From an uncultured Bacteroidales bacterium (GTDB lineage Bacteria; Bacteroidota; Bacteroidia; Bacteroidales; VadinHA17): a stretch of 64,000 nucleotides of DNA. The position numbers were made by a program, and so were the translations under genes. The DNA lies in assembly GCA_963823065.1 (NCBI GenBank), contig CAWGJX010000004.1, forward strand, positions 1,088,139 through 1,152,138, read 5' to 3'. Below the pieces are notes generated by a model. It was not told the DNA's origin. It searched no databases and saw nothing but the letters and a program-made list of their open reading frames with translations. Shown piece by piece: positions 1,857 through 8,859 of the stretch. Position 1 is the stretch's first letter; each line of letters begins with the position of its first letter.

Positions 1857-1920
1857 TAAATCTGTTTTAATGTTTGAGTATCAATCTTTTATTGGTACCG
1901 GGTGCTGGGTTCTTGTTAAA

Positions 1921-1962
1921 CCAGCAACCAGTAACCAGCAACCAGCACCCAGCAACCAGCAA
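1921..1962. repeat. six tandem degenerate heptamers (CCAGCAA/CCAGTAA/CCAGCAC) abutting the stop codon of the carboxyltransferase gene
   Basis: Read directly as ccagcaa ccagtaa ccagcaa ccagcac ccagcaa ccagcaa. A partly complementary arm, ggtaccgggtgctgggttcttg, lies at 1895-1916. Confidence 0.85.
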
Positions 1963-3519
1963 CTATAGTGGCATATTACCATGTTTCCGGGCAGGCACTT
2001 TTACCCATTTATTATTAAGGGCATTCAGAGCAGATAAGATTTTTTTCCGTGTTACAGCTGGATCTATTACTTCATCGATGTATCCGCTTTCATCAGCAAT
2101 AAAAGGATTTGCAATCTTATCACGGTATTTTTTAACGAGCTCCTTTTTTAGTTCAACAGGATTTTTTGATTCAGCAAGTTCCTTCCTGTACAAAATTGCA
2201 ACTGCTCCGTCGGGTCCCATAACTGCGATTTCTGCCGAAGGCCATGCAAAACTAAAGTCACCGCCAAGATTCTTACTGTTCATTACGATGAACGCTCCGC
2301 CATATGCTTTACGTAGTATTATTGTAATCTTAGGTACAGTGGCTTCACTGTATGCGAAAAGCAATTTAGCCCCATGTCTGATGATTCCGGCATGTTCCTG
2401 ATCTACTCCGGGTAGAAATCCCGGAACATCCTCAAAAGTCAGAACAGGTATATTAAATGCATCACAAAACCTTATAAATCTTGCACCTTTCGTCGATGAA
2501 TCTATGTCGAGAACACCTGCCAGAACTTTAGGCTGATTGGCTACAATGCCAATAGTTTTACCTTTCAACCTGGCAAAACCTGTAACAAGACTTGCTCCAA
2601 ATAGTTCGGACGTTTCAAAAAAACTGTTCCTGTCGACAATCTGGGATATAATATCTTTGACATCGTAAGCTTTATTTGGATCTTCGGGGATAATGTCCCG
2701 AAGTTTTTCATTTACATCGCTTATTGAGCCATCATCACTTACTACTGGTGGGTTTTCAACGTTATTTGACGGAAGGTATGAAAGGAATTTTTTCAGTGCG
2801 AGAATGGTATTTTCCTCATCATCATAGATCATATGGGCAACACCGCTTTTACGGGCATGAACTTCTGCTCCGCCGAGTCCTTCTGATGTTACATCTTCAT
2901 TCAGAACCTCTTTAACAACATTAGGTCCTGTGACAAACATGTAACTTGTATGGTTCACCATAAAGACAAAATCAGTAAGGGCAGGGGAGTAGACAGCGCC
3001 TCCGGCTGCCGGACCCATTATGACTGAGATCTGAGGTATGATACCTGATGAATGAATAATATTCTGAAAGATGGCTGCATAACCGCTAAGACTTGCAACT
3101 CCTTCCTGTATTCTGGCACCTCCAGAATCTATAAGTGCTATTATCGGAGAACCCATTTTCAGTGCCATCTCCTGGATCTTGGCAATCTTTTTTGCATGAA
3201 CAATCCCGAGTGATCCTCCCATTATTGTAAAATCCTGGGCATATGCGAATATCAGCCTTCCATTAACTTTACCATGCCCAACTATGACTCCGTCACCATA
3301 TGCTCTTTCAACCTTCCCAAATTCGACAGGCTGATCTGCAGGGGTAACAAATTGGTCGATCTCTTCAAATGTATTCTTATCAAAAAGGAGATTGATCCGT
3401 TCATGTGCGGTAAGTTTGCCTTTTGAATGTTGCTTTTCAGTTTGCTTGGGGCTATATTGTTTTTCAATTGCCGATTGCCGATCAATAAAGGCTTTATAGT
3501 ACTTACCAGATAAATCCAT
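1963..3519 (-). CDS. acyl-CoA (propionyl-CoA / methylmalonyl-CoA type) carboxyltransferase beta subunit
   Basis: Intact 518-aa ORF with carboxyl-transferase motifs DSGGARIQEG, ANQPKVLAGVLD and RKAYGGA. It sits upstream of accC and BCCP on the same strand. Confidence 0.9.
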   Translation of the reverse strand: MDLSGKYYKAFIDRQSAIEKQYSPKQTEKQHSKGKLTAHERINLLFDKNTFEEIDQFVTPADQPVEFGKVERAYGDGVIVGHGKVNGRLIFAYAQDFTIMGGSLGIVHAKKIAKIQEMALKMGSPIIALIDSGGARIQEGVASLSGYAAIFQNIIHSSGIIPQISVIMGPAAGGAVYSPALTDFVFMVNHTSYMFVTGPNVVKEVLNEDVTSEGLGGAEVHARKSGVAHMIYDDEENTILALKKFLSYLPSNNVENPPVVSDDGSISDVNEKLRDIIPEDPNKAYDVKDIISQIVDRNSFFETSELFGASLVTGFARLKGKTIGIVANQPKVLAGVLDIDSSTKGARFIRFCDAFNIPVLTFEDVPGFLPGVDQEHAGIIRHGAKLLFAYSEATVPKITIILRKAYGGAFIVMNSKNLGGDFSFAWPSAEIAVMGPDGAVAILYRKELAESKNPVELKKELVKKYRDKIANPFIADESGYIDEVIDPAVTRKKILSALNALNNKWVKVPARKHGNMPL

Positions 3520-3773
3520 TCCTCAACTAATTTTAAGGTATCAAAAATAGGCAATATCATGTTAATTACAAAAATCCTTCGACCGCAATACTGTTGAATT
3601 TTGTAACATATTGATATATAATATGATAAGGAGCGATAAATTTCGACTGTTGGTTGCATGGCCAATACTAACCCACCCCTAACCCCTCCGGTGGAGGGGA
3701 ATTGTTTTCAGTAATCCCTGCTTCCTGCTCTATGCCCATTGCCCATTGCCCCATGCTAACCAACTCCTAACGG

Positions 3774-3935
3774 GGCTGTTGAAAAAGTTTAAATCCATTA
3801 ACCGCAAAGGTCGCAAAGAATTTACGCAAAGATCGCAAAGTTCCGATAGCTATCGGAATGAATTATAATGTTTTGACTTTGCGCACTTCGCGCCTCCTTA
3901 GCGTGCTTTGCGGTTAAAAAAGACTTTTTAACAGC
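3774..3935. repeat. about 160-nt imperfect palindromic intergenic element: four CGCAAAG heptamers, an 18-bp perfect palindrome, then four CTTNGCG heptamers
   Basis: Outer inverted repeat ggctgttgaaaaagt (3774-3788) / actttttaacagcc (3922-3935). CGCAAAG at 3803, 3812, 3825 and 3834. Centre TTCCGATAGCTATCGGAA at 3841-3858. CTTTGCG/CTTCGCG/CTTAGCG/CTTTGCG at 3877, 3886, 3897 and 3906. Confidence 0.85.
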
Positions 3936-3976
3936 CACAATTGTTTTATGTCTGTCTCCATACTCCCTTCACCATG

Positions 3977-4591
3977 CTATTTTGGCTTGAATAATCCTTC
4001 GGCTTTTGATCCTATCAGGCCTGCTTTTATAACAATATCACTGGCTGTTTTAAGATTTTTTATCATCTTTTCAGACACAACCGGGTAATGACGGATTTTT
4101 TCCAGCTTATCTCCAATATACTCAAGGTCATCATCGGTTGTTGCCCAGTTAAATTTGTTATAAACAGTGAGGTCAAGCGGAATTGAATACGATCGCAATG
4201 ATTTATACCCGTTCATATTAAAGTAAAAGTCAAAATAGGACATGATGAGTTCACGCAAGTTGCGATATACAGGTTCCCGGTATCTAAGTGTTGTAAAATT
4301 TGATTTACCTATAGAACCCCAATAGCCATCTTTTTTGAACACAGCCAGAACATGATCATCATCATTTTGCGATTTCATATCAACTATGAGTGGTTTATAT
4401 CCGTTAAACTGCAAAGCTGCGGCAGCAAAAAGAGCACCCTCAAAACAATGAGCTGATCTTTTCCTTATAACCCAGCGCGGCGATTTACATTCATATTTAG
4501 GGTTATAATCAAGCGTATCGAGAAAATCCTGAATTTTGTCAGGTCCATTTAATGTTGCCAGAAATTTTACCTCTTCTTTCGTCCAATCCAT
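3977..4591 (-). CDS. hypothetical protein with a possible papain/transglutaminase-like Cys-His core
   Basis: Intact 204-aa ORF. SAHCFEGALFAAAAL places a Cys at the start of a predicted helix, followed by DDDHVLAVF..GYWGSIG. Fold assignment is pattern-based only. Confidence 0.6.
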   Translation of the reverse strand: MDWTKEEVKFLATLNGPDKIQDFLDTLDYNPKYECKSPRWVIRKRSAHCFEGALFAAAALQFNGYKPLIVDMKSQNDDDHVLAVFKKDGYWGSIGKSNFTTLRYREPVYRNLRELIMSYFDFYFNMNGYKSLRSYSIPLDLTVYNKFNWATTDDDLEYIGDKLEKIRHYPVVSEKMIKNLKTASDIVIKAGLIGSKAEGLFKPK

Positions 4592-4826
4592 TACCGTTTC
4601 CCGTTTGTCGTTTGTCGTTTACTTTTCTCCGAAGCTTTCTTTGACCAACGAAGTTTTAGCAAAGTTGGTAGCGTAGGAGGATCATTTTTTGTATCTCTGT
4701 GGTCCTCAGTGTTCTCTGTGGAAGTTCTTTTTTTCTTTCCCGCTTTTCCGATAGCTATCGGAATCGCAGATTATCGCGGATTAAATCCTGCCTCACGCCT
4801 CACGCCTAACTCCTCACGCCTCACTC
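4592..4826. repeat. composite intergenic element holding a second copy of the 18-bp palindrome plus heptamer arrays
   Basis: CGTTTSY heptamers x4 at 4594-4621. CTCTGTGG-type repeats at 4695-4721. TTCCGATAGCTATCGGAA at 4746-4763. CCTCACG/CCTAACT heptamers x6 at 4790-4830. The orientation is inverted relative to the 3774-3935 element. Confidence 0.8.
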
Positions 4827-5922
4827 CTACGTTAAGTTCCTGATAATCTTTTGCATGTCCCCATACTGCTCCTCCATGCTCATTACCAGACTCAACTGTG
4901 CCCTGGTTCGTTGAAGATTATGATATTTATGGTGTATTTTGAAATAATTATCACCGTCAATAAAATCGGTAAGAAAACGTACTGCTATAGTATAGGTAAT
5001 CAGTTTTGGAGCGAATGCAAGATATTCTATTTCAATGTCATTCAGCGTTTTGATAGTTTCAGAAAGATAACCTTCAGCATATGCTTTAAAAAGATTAATA
5101 TCCATTTTAATTTTTGACAGGTCATCCTCATCTTCTGATGCTGTGTTTGCGGCTGTTCTTATTGCATCTCCAAAATCATAATGAATATATCCTGGCATTA
5201 CGGTATCAAGATCAATAACACACAAAGCCTTATTATTCTCATCGAGAAGTATATTATTGAATTTTGTGTCATTATGGGTGATCCTAAGAGGTATTTTGCC
5301 TTCCTTTCCTAAGCGGAGTATTTTTTTCATTTCATCAGTCCTTCTGCTGATCTGATCTATTTCCTGCTTTACTGAGTCAACCCGGCCGACCGGATTTTCT
5401 TTTACTTTTGTGAAAAAAGCCTCAAGTCTTTTTTCAATATCATGGAAACATGGAATTGTCTCAAATAACTGACCTCCCGGCATATCCGATAACATTGCCT
5501 GAAAACGACCTATTGCTTTTCCGCCTTCGAAGGCTTTATCCGGACTATCGACAACATTAAAGGAATGATGTTTGGAAATGAATATATACATCCTCCAATA
5601 GTTTCCGTCTTTATCGACTATCCAGGTTTTACCATCCATGGAAGGGATCAACTGCAGGCATTCTCTTTTAATATCTGAGCCAGGGACAGCGGCTTAGTTT
5701 ATTTCTGAGATGAACGGTGACTCTTTCAATATTATGCTGCAGCTCAGGTATATTTTTAAAGATCCTGTTATTAAGACGCTGGAGTATATAATCATCCTTA
5801 TCCGCCTCAGCTGTCTCAATTCTGAAGGTATCGTGTATATGTCCGCTGCCATATGGTTCTCCTGTTAAAAATGTACCATCAGCTTCGAAATATTCAAATA
5901 TTTCCTTCAGGTTATATGCCAT
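4827..5922 (-). pseudogene. APH-family sugar anomeric kinase (N-acetylhexosamine 1-kinase-like), split by one frameshift near 5650-5700
   Basis: N-terminal ORF 5668..5922 (GSGHIHDTF, ILQRLNNRIF) and C-terminal ORF 4827..5651 (ITHNDTKFNNILLD, VIDLDTV) are in different frames. Combined length of 1096 nt fits a protein of about 365 aa. Confidence 0.7.
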
Positions 5923-5923
5923 A

Positions 5924-7264
5924 TTATTTCCCCGCTTTATGACCGATAAAAGCGTAATACATTATGATTAGATAGGCGGGAACACATATCCAGTAAGCTG
6001 ATTGCGTTGAAAAGGTCACTGCCAGTTTTCCATATAACAAGGGTAACACTGCTCCGCCTGAGATGGCCATAATTATCATTGCTGAAGCTGTTTTTGTGAA
6101 TCTCCCAAGTCCGCTGATTGTCAAGGGCCAGAGTGCCGGCCACATCAGTGAGTTTGCCAGACCCATTAATGCTACAAAAAGAACGGTTAAGGGCAAAATA
6201 AGCTTTAATGGCGAAAAAGAGACAATATCAATAAATGGTATTGTAAAAGTAAAATGGGCAGGTGTTATTATCGCTGCAAGTGCAAAAATTACGCCAAGAA
6301 TTGCACAGATCTTCAAAGCTGTAACCTGCCTGATATATTTTGGGATAAGCATTATTCCCAGAAGATATCCGATTATCATACTAAGTAATGTCAGTGAAGT
6401 GAAATATTTTGCAGAGCTCATAGCTATTCCCAGAGATTGTCCGTATCTGATAATCGTGTCACCGGCAATAACTTCAACTCCCACATAGAAGAAAAATGTA
6501 ATTACCCCGATTATAAGATGTGGAAACTGCCATACACTTGTTTTTTTGAGGTTTGATTCACTGCTGGCTGCATCTTCAGCATCGGTGTCAATTTCAGGAA
6601 GATGGGTAAACCTTAGCAGTAATCCGAGAAGAACAAGGATCACCGCCATAACTACGTACGGAAAAATTACCCGGCTTGCCAGTTCATTCAATAAGACTGC
6701 CCTTGAAGCTGAATCAGCTGCCTGCGCAAGTTTTTGCTCAAGAATATTTGCATCTTTTAATATAATGCTGGCGAGTATAATCGGAGCCAGAACACCGGCA
6801 AATTTATTCGCAATTCCCATTATGCTTATTCTTTTTGCTGCACTTTCGGGTGGACCAATAATGGTAATATACGGATTTGATGCTGTCTGAAGAAGAGCCA
6901 GACCGGTTCCTTCTACAAATAGTCCAAAGAGAAACAGACCGAAGGTCCTTGTCATTGCGGCCGGCACAAATATTAATGCTCCGACTGCCATAATCCATAA
7001 TCCCAGTGACATTCCATTCTTAAACCCCGTCTTCTTCAGTACTGCTGATGAAGGTAAAGCCATGACAAAATAGGAGACATAGAAAGCAAATGTTACGAAA
7101 TATGCTTGAAAATCATTCAATTCGCATGCTGTCCGTAAGAAAGGGATGAGTATCCCGTTCAGCCATGTGACGAATCCAAAGATGAAAAAAAACAGTCCGA
7201 TTATAGAAACTGAGAAGACATAATCTTTTCTGCTGATAGCGTTAGTAGGGTTGACGGTAGTCAT
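5924..7264 (-). CDS. MFS sugar transporter, glucose/galactose (GluP/FucP) family
   Basis: 446-aa polytopic ORF with N-terminal FFIFGFVTWLNGILIPFLR, typical of the GluP/FucP subfamily. It is adjacent to sugar kinases. Confidence 0.8.
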   Translation of the reverse strand: MTTVNPTNAISRKDYVFSVSIIGLFFFIFGFVTWLNGILIPFLRTACELNDFQAYFVTFAFYVSYFVMALPSSAVLKKTGFKNGMSLGLWIMAVGALIFVPAAMTRTFGLFLFGLFVEGTGLALLQTASNPYITIIGPPESAAKRISIMGIANKFAGVLAPIILASIILKDANILEQKLAQAADSASRAVLLNELASRVIFPYVVMAVILVLLGLLLRFTHLPEIDTDAEDAASSESNLKKTSVWQFPHLIIGVITFFFYVGVEVIAGDTIIRYGQSLGIAMSSAKYFTSLTLLSMIIGYLLGIMLIPKYIRQVTALKICAILGVIFALAAIITPAHFTFTIPFIDIVSFSPLKLILPLTVLFVALMGLANSLMWPALWPLTISGLGRFTKTASAMIIMAISGGAVLPLLYGKLAVTFSTQSAYWICVPAYLIIMYYAFIGHKAGK

Positions 7265-7420
7265 AACAATGGATTTAATTTTATTATAGTTCTATACTGA
7301 AGCTTTCAAAACTAATCTTTTTATCTGATGGAAGCAAGAAAAAATAATTTTGTTTTTTTAGTTCAAAAGTTATAGAACTGATTCGGATTTAAAGTAAATT
7401 TGTACAATGTGAATAAGCAA

Positions 7421-7509
7421 GGCATAAGGGCATAAAGGCTTAAGGGCTGAAGGGAAAACCAATTTTAAATTTGGCCTTTAAGCCATTACGCCATTGCGCC
7501 TTTAAGCCT
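7421..7509. repeat. imperfect hairpin element built from 4+4 degenerate octamers (GGCNTAAN / NTTANGCC)
   Basis: Left arm ggcataag ggcataaa ggcttaag ggctgaag (7421-7452). Right arm cctttaagcc attacgcc attgcgcc tttaagcc (7475-7508). It lies 27 nt upstream of the regulator gene, in a divergent promoter region. Confidence 0.8.
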
Positions 7510-7535
7510 TTTTAACAATTAACTATTCAGGAATT

Positions 7536-8012
7536 ATGTCAGTTCAGGAAAAAAGGATACGCGAAACAATAGAGGAAACCGGTAAAGTTTTTGAAAAGTT
7601 TGGTCTTACTCCAATGCAGGGAAGGATTATTTCTTATTTCACTGTCAGTGATCCACCTGAAAAAACCTTTGAAGAGCTGGTAACATATTTTAAAGCCAGC
7701 AAGAGTTCGGTAAGCAATTCATTGAATTTTCTTTTGCAAAATAAACTCATTGATTATAAGACCTTTCCATCTGACAGGAAAAGATACTTTTTTATCACTG
7801 ATTCATTTTTCAGGATATATTTTAAAAGAGTACTTGAGAATGTAGCTGAATTAAAGGAATATGCCTACAGAACAGTCTCGATGCGTTCCCCTGAATATCC
7901 ACTGGCCAGTGAGAAGATTCTCAAATGGATAGAGAATGCTAACAAATTCCAGGAATCTCTTGAAAATACGATAGAAATAATCCGGAACGAAAAATCCGGA
8001 ACTGAATATTAG
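7536..8012 (+). CDS. MarR/GbsR-like winged-helix transcriptional regulator
   Basis: 158-aa ORF whose central FEELVTYFKASKSSVSNSLNFLLQNKLIDY has a helix-turn-helix pattern. It is divergent from the MFS transporter. Confidence 0.6.
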   Translation: MSVQEKRIRETIEETGKVFEKFGLTPMQGRIISYFTVSDPPEKTFEELVTYFKASKSSVSNSLNFLLQNKLIDYKTFPSDRKRYFFITDSFFRIYFKRVLENVAELKEYAYRTVSMRSPEYPLASEKILKWIENANKFQESLENTIEIIRNEKSGTEY

Positions 8013-8626
8013 GAGCGGTTATTTTTACCCGAAATTTTTCTCGATTTCATTCCAAGATATCCACCGTGATGTCTTTTGGCATAATCATCGGCATTAAATT
8101 TGATTTTTGTCATCAGGAGCACAACAAGTGCATCACCTATAACTGTCATCATTGTTGTTGAAGTAGTAGGAGTAAGACCAAGAATACATACCTCTTCAGG
8201 TGCACCGGTAAGTATAAAACAATCAGCTTTTTGTGCCAGAGGGCTGTTGTTATTGCCGGTTATAACAATAACAGGCACCTGTGGATAAAGATTATTTTTC
8301 AAATCAATGAGTTCGATGATCTCCCTTGTTTTTCCGGAATTGGAAATTGCAAGAAGAACATCATTTTCCTGTAGAATTCCAAGGTCACCATGCTGGGCTT
8401 CACTTGGATGAAGAAAGATTGAAGGTGTTCCGGTTGAACTAAATGTAGTTGCTATATTGTGAGCTATCTGTCCTGCTTTTCCCATACCGCTTGTTACCAG
8501 TTTTCCGTTTTTTTCATGAACATGCCTGTAGATGATATCAACTGCGGTTTCAAAACTCTCAGTTACAGGAATGTTTTCAATGGCATTTGCCTCTTTTCTA
8601 AATATTTCCCTGACTTTTTCCATCAT
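8009..8626 (-). CDS. SIS-domain sugar-phosphate isomerase/binding protein (KpsF/GutQ-like SIS core, no CBS pair)
   Basis: 205-aa ORF with GKLVTSGMGKAGQIA and LLAISNSGKTREI, typical SIS motifs. Confidence 0.75.
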   Translation of the reverse strand: MMEKVREIFRKEANAIENIPVTESFETAVDIIYRHVHEKNGKLVTSGMGKAGQIAHNIATTFSSTGTPSIFLHPSEAQHGDLGILQENDVLLAISNSGKTREIIELIDLKNNLYPQVPVIVITGNNNSPLAQKADCFILTGAPEEVCILGLTPTTSTTMMTVIGDALVVLLMTKIKFNADDYAKRHHGGYLGMKSRKISGKNNRS

Positions 8627-8700
8627 ATCTTTAATAAACTTAGGCCAAAGTTATTAAAAATAATCACCGACCGACAGAGGCATTTAAAAAAAGGAGTAAT

Positions 8701-8783
8701 GGCATAAAGACGCAAATGCTTAAAAGTATGTTGCCCTTTGTGTCCTTTGTGCCTGCTTTGTGTTCTTTGTGGTTAATGGATTT
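8701..8783. repeat. intergenic element of the same family: GGCATAAAG-type octamers plus four CTTTGTG repeats and the conserved 13-mer
   Basis: The reverse complement of 8734-8783 reads AAATCCATTAACC-ACAAAG-AACACAAAG-CAGGCACAAAG-GACACAAAG. The same 13-mer AAATCCATTAACC occurs at 3791-3803, there followed by four CGCAAAG. Confidence 0.8.
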
Positions 8784-8859
8784 CCTGTTTTTTGAAGGAT
8801 TCAGCTTACCGAGAAAGATTTAAAGCTACTTTTGTATTGAATCATCAACTTCGTAAAGG

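Follow-up and report, generated by a model that had tools for sequence, protein, structure and literature searches.

Heptamer-armed intergenic palindromes in a VadinHA17 genome as probable non-coding relatives of small gene-bearing cassettes

What kind of element fills intergenic DNA with short runs of degenerate 7-8-mers, each spacer using words of its own? The question is raised by a 64,000-nucleotide stretch from an uncultured Bacteroidales bacterium of the VadinHA17 lineage (GenBank assembly GCA_963823065.1, contig CAWGJX010000004.1, here C4), referred to below as the window, which covers C4:1088139-1152138 of a genome of 4.35 Mb, 38% GC and four contigs. An earlier note made from the sequence alone had described such arrays in five spacers of the first 9 kb and had joined them into one family. 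Tandem Repeats Finder (TRF) recovered the arrays at the same positions in all five spacers (Table 1) and made no comparable period-7/8/9 call in the 55 kb of the window that follow. In place of a single family we found two architectures together with unrelated small hairpins. Probably the arrays are non-coding relatives, for the most part nested or decayed, of two sorts of small palindromic cassette, one (class A) carrying a gene for a GxxExxY protein and the other (class B) a gene for a four-helix-bundle (4HB) protein. Class A in the window comprises 3772-3936, 8701-8783 and a solo arm at 4695-4721, and the remaining arrays are class B in style.

The confinement to the first 9 kb that had been described holds inside the window but not genome-wide, and copies are abundant both in the genome and in its relatives. 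The class A anchor AAATCCATTAACC occurs in 88 exact copies (105 for the anchor+RCARAG pattern within one mismatch), class A termini (TTAACC-RCNRAG) number 199 and lie on both large contigs, and 282 period-7/8 arrays carry 150 distinct words with copy numbers up to 20. Period-7 arrays of at least three units total 211, with 167 intergenic; 91% of the class A termini are intergenic against approximately 14% of the genome, all context statistics resting on a crude open reading frame (ORF) map. The commonest array word, AACCAGC (13 arrays), is the dialect found at window position 1919. The arrays are also clumped (mean 0.92 and variance 2.4 per 10-kb bin), and the first 10 kb of the window, with six arrays, is a hot spot, being among the 15 of 438 bins with at least five.

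Shared ends of gene-less palindromes and GxxExxY cassettes

A class A end consists of a TTAACC or GCCAC terminus followed by four 7-bp words (consensus CRCNRAG) set as two pairs, with intervals of about 9, 13 and 9 bp between word starts, and the two ends of an element are inverted. The genome holds 56-57 complete CAAAG elements, running from TTAACC plus words to words plus GGTTAA with a modal length of 100-110 bp, and about 20 near-identical copies of 105 bp are scattered through it. These 105-bp palindromes are class A ends without a gene. At C1:53053-53590 the anchor and four CGCAAAG words are followed, after a 17-bp spacer, by an ORF of 125 aa and then by four CTTTGCG words and GGTTAA; the ORF encodes a GxxExxY protein (TIGR04256 / PF13366). 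Since these arms are the arms of the gene-less element, gene-bearing and gene-less copies share their ends.

In this genome all three PF13366 genes are bracketed by inverted arrays, and the word differs from gene to gene. The CAAAG elements fall into two subfamilies, all-G (45 elements) and all-A (8 elements), in line with the two GxxExxY genes whose arms are of the G and the A type, and the window contains one of each dialect: the anchor with four RCAAAG words, as had been noticed, is present at 3791 (+) and again at 8771-8783 (-). A GGCATAA octamer at 8701, previously linked to the octamers at 7421, instead pairs with the CTTTGTG words and represents the decayed inner arm of the second CAAAG element.

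The association extends across genomes and phyla. In 24 sister species of the genus the GxxExxY genes nearly all carry 4+4 words, every one a variant of CRCNRAG: CGCAAAG, CACAAAG, CACAGAG, CACGGAG, CACGGAT, CACAGAT, CGCAGAG and CACTAAG. For 80 loci found by protein similarity in Bacteroidota orders, Ignavibacteriota, Chloroflexota and Acidobacteriota, inverted flanking arms (score at least 16) were observed at 62, compared with 3 of 80 in a reversed control, and the arms of the cross-phylum loci again read TTAACC-RCARAG. Class A termini also outnumbered a reversed-pattern control in Flavobacterium phragmitis (70 vs 24), F. frigidimaris (45 vs 12), Mucilaginibacter psychrotolerans (30 vs 3) and another Bacteroidales metagenome-assembled genome (MAG; 98 vs 2).

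The GxxExxY protein is a predicted minimal PD-(D/E)XK nuclease. E27, D67, E77 and K79 are invariant across 11 genus-level proteins, while an 81-sequence alignment retains D67 and K79 as invariant and E27 and E77 as at least 90% conserved; 73 of 78 ORFs are intact. The AlphaFold model (predicted local distance difference test score 95.8) has a minimal PD-(D/E)XK fold, with weak Foldseek neighbours in the PDB (E about 1e-3) that include Cas4 SSO0001, lambda-type exonucleases and tRNA-splicing endonuclease, and a sequence search of solved structures returned no GxxExxY relative. In the M.LLHQELT clade, a Bacteroidetes-type TAnnTTTG promoter motif (read by eye) stands after the left arm and before the ATG, so that both arms cannot share the mRNA of that gene and pair there, which points to a role of the arms at the DNA level. 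The word layout, with pairs spaced by about two helical turns, lends support to such a putative role.

Four-helix-bundle genes between tandem heptamer arrays

The class B end is a contiguous run of tandem 7-8-mers such as CCAGCAA, GGCNTAAG, CGTTTGT or CCTCACG, and the full-length form carries a PF05635 4HB gene (TIGR02436, Avd-like, '23S rRNA intervening sequence (IVS) protein'). Each of the eight PF05635 genes of the genome lies between inverted arrays of its own word. Across the genus, inverted arms scored at least 14 at 28 of 28 PF05635 loci, compared with 4 of 28 in the control, and at least 20 at 24 of the 28; random genes in this genome scored at least 16 in 5.5% of cases and at least 20 in 1.7%. 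Dialects of the window recur at such loci: a PF05635 gene in sister species G009 (locus L135) is flanked by the CCAGCAA dialect of 1895-1963, and words related to the 7421-7511 hairpin flank PF05635 genes at C1:1030675 and in locus L126. Some 4HB arms in the genus are made of GGGATYA-type words.

A tblastn search of plasmids with one 4HB protein matched almost solely Cyanobacteria. Inverted heptamer arms were observed at four of the eight cyanobacterial plasmid loci sampled (Nostoc punctiforme, N. flagelliforme, Nostoc UHCC 0926 and Anabaena sp. 90), and two 4HB genes of PCC 7120 plasmids had a one-sided array. The 4HB proteins match the pentameric chains 2RLD and 2GSC (XCC0516) and, weakly, a model of Avd from diversity-generating retroelements. 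Most class B arrays are unpaired, with a partner found for about 94 of 403 by local alignment with a control, which was used in place of pairing by TRF consensus or exact words (too strict, with a noisy reversed control).

In both classes, divergence of the words goes with divergence of the encoded protein. On the GxxExxY protein tree 24 changes accounted for the word labels, where shuffled labels averaged 33.9 and none of 200 shuffles was as low, and the ACGGAG, ACGGAT and ACTAAG clades take one word change each. For 4HB proteins that are 80-94% identical, words differ at one to three positions, as in the series GAGATGT / GAGATAT / GAGTGGT / GAGCGGT and GACGGAT / GACCGAT. Paired words of the CAAAG arms agree in 171 of 187 cases, and adjacent words of the same arm agree equally often, indicating homogenisation of whole elements and not base-pair covariation. 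G/A covariation as a sign of a selected stem was therefore rejected, the G/A difference being a subfamily trait.

Turnover, possible movement and alternative origins

Copies of the anchor pattern, 105 in this genome, range from 0 to 68 across the 24 sister species and are essentially lacking in 16 other families of the order. Synteny of the first 9.6 kb of the window is kept in 12 sister species and the spacers differ, with the CAAAG element at 3772-3936 missing from all ten comparable orthologous spacers. At the junction 3' of the carboxyltransferase stop, the CCAGCAA hairpin dialect was observed here and in G007, ATCGTTT x14 with GCCCTGM x10 in G018, and GTTTCTC with CTGCCTT in G020; G004 and G012 have nothing there. 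The site of the 8701-8783 arm holds a G-dialect arm of the same orientation in G007 and none in four sister species, and that of the 7421-7511 hairpin holds a similar GGCRYAAAG hairpin in G010 and none in G012, G006 and G009. Presence and absence at orthologous spacers, a comparison already proposed, are therefore patchy, with sister species having other words or none.

This turnover bears on the terminator, insulator or structured-RNA roles previously offered, which our results do not support. In such an account the arrays would be host cis-elements selected at gene ends, acting as terminators, mRNA-stabilising hairpins, insulators or sites bound by a host protein. It would suit the stable hairpins and the arrays that, here and in sister species, directly adjoin stop codons; the contacts reported in the window (stops at 1963 and 4827, a start at 4591) are indeed there. 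It would also suit the strand preference of the anchor in co-directional spacers, opposite to the genes in 46 cases and with them in 21 (binomial estimate p about 0.002), which implies an orientation-dependent cost or benefit. We nevertheless consider this origin very unlikely, as neither sequence nor presence is kept at orthologous sites, copy number varies from 0 to 105 within one genus, and the share of class A elements in divergent, promoter-type spacers (20%) is close to the 24% of intergenic bases found there. An Rfam scan of the elements gave no match at the gathering score and nothing real at the E-value threshold; the 7411-7513 hairpin had one match below threshold, to a plant miRNA, with 33 bits of a required 70. 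No heptamer hairpin passed the terminator scan, in which just the 3683-3699 hairpin qualified, on the strand opposite both neighbouring genes, and from scan and genomic context an intrinsic terminator role was rejected.

Nested insertions are frequent. A CACAGAG cassette lies within a CAAAG element (locus L002), palindromes of 16-18 bp lie within CAAAG loops and arms, and CAAAG elements lie inside, and are split by, a CCCCTGCC...GGGGGG family. The reading that fits the window elements best is that of non-autonomous relatives of the GxxExxY and 4HB cassettes, nested and decayed in a permissive region and resembling MITEs (miniature transposable elements with inverted repeats). The options of 'MITE-like remnants' and 'protein-binding arrays' raised at the outset thus fit best, with the arms as ends of gene-bearing cassettes. 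The arms would serve as cis-acting ends and the phased words as putative binding sites for the cassette's own protein, and gene-less copies may be mobilised or maintained in trans, like MITEs or the hairpin-forming doublets (REPINs) of repetitive extragenic palindromic (REP) sequences. The encoded proteins may move the elements. Slippage and arm-to-arm correction in the folded hairpin could keep the words of one element alike. Elements may pile up in spacers that tolerate them and within one another's hairpins, which would give clusters such as that in the first 9 kb of the window.

The CAAAG elements have several traits of MITEs, being short, non-coding, multi-copy and dispersed, with terminal inverted repeats. 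Like MITEs (for example that of Porphyromonas gingivalis with its internal minisatellite, PMC4596501), they take part in nested insertions and have a longer gene-bearing relative with the same ends, the product of which, GxxExxY (PDDEXK_3), is listed as 'Unknown' in function (PMC3424549). They differ from MITEs in their internally periodic arms; no target-site duplication was found, and the gene-bearing relative encodes no recognised transposase.

Several observations weigh against this reading. The alignment of 20 CAAAG copies with their flanks shows no consistent target-site duplication, TTAA being part of the inverted end, and no clean empty site was recovered: a metagenome scan for the empty junction gave nothing, and a strain-level search found no record for the 204-aa neighbour protein and just a 100%-identical contig for the MarR neighbour. 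Copy number and cognate gene are at odds in sister species G016 (57 CAAAG copies, cognate gene with TAG), G010 (30 copies, TAG) and G020 (15 copies, no cognate gene found). The 150 distinct words compare with eight 4HB genes in the genome and most class B arrays are unpaired, so many arrays need not derive from a cassette. Finally, G/A word switches occur between very close GxxExxY proteins, implying that this word position is not tightly read by the protein.

Some of these points would suit a different origin, in which arrays arise in place as slippage-made simple-sequence repeats, hairpins form by local inverted duplication, and small selfish genes insert into arrays or loops, making the gene-less elements targets and not derivatives. 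The number of words and array lengths, the predominance of unpaired arrays, the mosaics of adjoining dialects and the differing words at one gene junction in sister species are all in keeping with slippage. At C4:1459409-1459884 a 4HB gene lies between direct array copies beside a complete, intact hairpin, an arrangement that fits insertion into a pre-existing array equally well. Heptamer simple-sequence repeats are, moreover, over-represented in bacteria, as in the short tandemly repeated repetitive (STRR) sequences of Calothrix, GGGAATC of Xanthomonas and GGGGAYT of Nostoc (Rehm et al., PMC4692102). We still regard slippage as an unlikely source of the elements. Class A arms keep their TTAACC terminus and word layout alongside GxxExxY across phyla, the divergence of 4HB words tracks that of the protein, as expected if arms and gene are co-inherited, and local slippage cannot make the dispersed near-identical 105-bp copies.

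We also compared the elements with REP sequences, bacterial interspersed mosaic elements (BIMEs) and REPINs, and the earlier failure to match a named REP/BIME family was confirmed. The likeness lies in abundant intergenic palindromes, in a single-copy gene flanked by repeats of its gene-less satellites, and in patchiness between species. The partner differs, being a Y1 HUH transposase in REP systems, including the REP-associated tyrosine transposases (RAYTs), and a PD-(D/E)XK (GxxExxY) or four-helix-bundle protein here. A REP is also a single 20-40-bp palindrome with a GTAG/CGTC tag (PMC3733652), whereas the present elements are arrays of at least four 7-8-bp words with no tag seen. Movement of the arrays by the RAYT-like Y1 transposases of this genome has a very slim chance of being correct. 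Six PF01797 genes are present, and the Y1 gene at C1:546207-546539 is flanked by TTAACCACGGCTTTTAAGCCGTGGTTAA hairpins whose first eight bases equal the class A terminus TTAACCAC, a match that may reflect chance or a shared target. The Y1 genes are, however, flanked by short GC-rich hairpins and not by heptamer arrays or CAAAG arms, and heptamer arms bracket GxxExxY and 4HB genes instead. The RAYT link was rejected on finding these other GC-rich hairpins at the flanks of all six PF01797 genes. The arrays are likewise no CRISPR, as had been said, having periods of 7-9 bp and no spacers or spacers of 2-7 bp, against 24-48-bp repeats with unique spacers of similar length.

Two further systems offer partial likenesses. 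Intervening sequences of 23S rRNA can encode an S23p / PF05635 protein; such cassettes sit in a helix of the 23S rRNA and are cut out of it, RNase III being the excising enzyme. They resemble class B in having a small four-helix-bundle ORF enclosed by complementary ends able to form a long stem, and differ in that the window elements lie between protein genes, not in rRNA, with tandem heptamers as arms. Ends of Tn7 and Mu carry several phased subterminal binding sites, and TnsA of Tn7 is a PD-(D/E)XK nuclease. Class A is alike in having several copies of one short word per inverted end, and a PD-(D/E)XK protein would be a plausible end-cutting activity; GxxExxY differs in having just 125 aa, no separate DNA-binding domain and no DDE partner. 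PF05635 has been discussed just as Avd-like, in terms of family relation to Avd (PMC10053308).

Heptamer repeats as such are well documented, their function and origin being stated as unknown (PMC4692102, PMC4679880). Like the arrays described here they are intergenic tandem 7-mers at many loci, typically of about four units; Xanthomonas GGGAATC usually has four units and forms 70 convergent inverted pairs (PMC4692102), and TAACTGA heptamers occur in Beggiatoaceae, Cyanobacteria and five Bacteroidetes (MacGregor, PMC4679880). These papers on heptameric repeats draw no link to a flanking gene family, whereas here PF05635 and PF13366 genes are bracketed and one genome holds many dialects. A literature search of limited reach found no paper linking GxxExxY or the PF05635 family to heptamer arrays. 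Tentatively, heptamer-armed palindromes could be satellites of minimal selfish elements that have gone unrecognised, whose sole gene encodes a ~125-aa GxxExxY PD-(D/E)XK or a 4HB Avd-like protein, each protein lineage reading its own 7-bp word in phased copies at both ends. Such elements would cover much of the heptamer load of Cyanobacteria (STRR), Xanthomonas (GGGAATC) and Bacteroidota.

The pairing of heptamers with cassettes may help to explain the heptamer repeats of Bacteroidota and Cyanobacteria. It would also bear on the large families of four-helix-bundle 'IVS' proteins that stand alone and have been assigned no role, and on the likewise uncharacterised GxxExxY proteins. Should genes and arrays belong to a single system, which the flank statistics suggest, the question can be tested in cultured strains, namely M. 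psychrotolerans and F. phragmitis, which hold many CAAAG termini, and N. punctiforme, with a 4HB gene between heptamer arms. If protein lineages each read their own word, they would form a naturally diversifying set of word-specific DNA readers.

Features of the window and further observations

The first 9.6 kb of the window encode biotin carboxylase, carboxyltransferase, a 204-aa ORF, a kinase-like ORF, a major facilitator superfamily (MFS) transporter, MarR, SIS and ROK proteins. The features among these genes are collected in Table 1 together with the folds. From the z-scores, four of the five array regions are hairpins, and to this extent the complementary arms reported for all of them were borne out; the exception is 4592-4826, which is a mosaic of unpaired arrays.

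Table 1. Repeat features and folded segments of the window, with DUF559 palindrome genes elsewhere in the genome. Arrays are TRF calls of period 7, 8 or 9; folds were computed as single-stranded DNA and compared with 200 dinucleotide shuffles.
Feature	Position	Strand	TRF array	Details
Complete gene-less class A element (CAAAG, G-dialect)	3772-3936	+	3803-3840	Outer arms 3772-3788 and 3922-3936; anchor AAATCCATTAACC 3791-3803; words start 3804, 3812, 3825, 3834; inserted 18-bp palindrome 3841-3858; mirrored words 3877-3912; GGTTAA 3912-3917; aligned with 19 other copies
Truncated class A element (A-dialect)	8701-8783	-	8735-8771	Anchor 8771-8783; four CACAAAG words 8735-8771; partner arm 8701-8718, two words, decayed
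Solo class A-type arm	4695-4721			Words CTCTGTG / CTCAGTG / CTCTGTG, mirror of CACAGAG
Class B hairpin	1895-1963		1919-1963	Left arm GGTACCGGGTGCTGGGTTCTTGTT 1895-1918; right arm CCAGCAA x6.4 at 1919-1963, abutting the carboxyltransferase stop codon
Class B hairpin	7421-7511		7421-7454, 7474-7511	GGCNTAAG x4.2 (7421-7454), loop, CTTANGCC x4.8 (7474-7511)
Unpaired CCCATTG x2.7 array, class B type	3733-3751		3733-3751	Dimer just once in genome
Unpaired CGTTTCC/CGTTTGT array	4594-4620		4602-4620	Begins 3 bp from start codon; no fold
Unpaired CCTCACG x5.6 array	4790-4828		4790-4828	Abuts stop codon; no partner arm
18-bp palindrome and repeat	4746-4783			TTCCGATAGCTATCGGAA 4746-4763, then ATCGCRGATT x2
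Small GC hairpin	3670-3706			CCCCTCCGGTGGAGGGG with ACCCACCCCTAACCCC leader; repeat kind distinct from heptamer arrays
Fold	3784-3930			z -4.9, -30.8 kcal/mol; 0/200 shuffles fold as well
Fold	8700-8800			z -3.1 (-3.06); 2/200 shuffles fold as well
Fold	1890-1965			z -2.1 (-2.06); 6/200 shuffles fold as well
Fold	7418-7512			z -2.0; 9/200 shuffles fold as well
Fold	4592-4720			z -0.6; 49/200 shuffles fold as well
Fold	4700-4830			z -1.5; 14/200 shuffles fold as well
DUF559 palindrome gene	C4:1189574-1189957			Outside window
DUF559 palindrome gene	C4:2160712-2161095			Outside window
DUF559 palindrome gene	C1:614658-615047			Outside window
DUF559 palindrome gene	C1:122499-122882			Outside window
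DUF559 palindrome gene	C4:589855-590238			Outside window
DUF559 palindrome gene	C4:667448-667831			Outside window

The words of the unpaired arrays differ in frequency: AAACGAC, the canonical word of the 4594-4620 array, occurs in seven arrays across the genome, and CCTCACG gave just three dimer matches. The solo arm mirrors CACAGAG, the word that makes up the arms of three GxxExxY cassettes of the genus (L001, L002 and L009). The small GC hairpin at 3670-3706 has about 8-16 BLAST copies in the genome and its fold is not significant (z -1.2). The 18-bp palindrome TTCCGATAGCTATCGGAA was found at 3841 and 4746, as reported, and its 14-bp core has 11 genome copies. It also occurs within CAAAG arms of another MAG (locus L046), and this palindrome and the similar ATCCCGAGTACTCGGGAT swap out 3-5 bases of CAAAG loops or arms with no clean insertion (including C4:2643234).

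Very long arrays were observed at C4:1986386-1986497 and C4:914500-914740, namely TTGCTGG/TTACTGG x16, which runs straight into CTCTGTG and TAGTAAG dialects, and an array of 17-mers upstream of a Y1 gene; dialect mosaics like that at 4592-4826 are therefore common. The kinase-like gene of the window is split into two same-strand ORFs (4827-5651 and 5668-5922, around 5651-5700), which suggests a frameshift or internal stop. A 1423-bp Logan contig (ERR11594406, locus L154), 100% identical to window 7351-8773, stops within the CAAAG arm, and the repeats therefore break short-read assemblies. The elements explain such assembly breaks and spurious ORF calls, and are useful markers of recent genome change.

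Hairpin cassettes also house a third family of small-nuclease genes, DUF559 (PF04480, restriction-endonuclease-like). At least six near-identical 128-aa DUF559 genes are each centred in a long palindrome (GTTTCCCCTCCTTTTGAAGGAGGGG...), and other DUF559 genes lie within members of the GGCCCCCCTGCCCCCCTAAAGGGGGG family, which forms nests with CAAAG elements.

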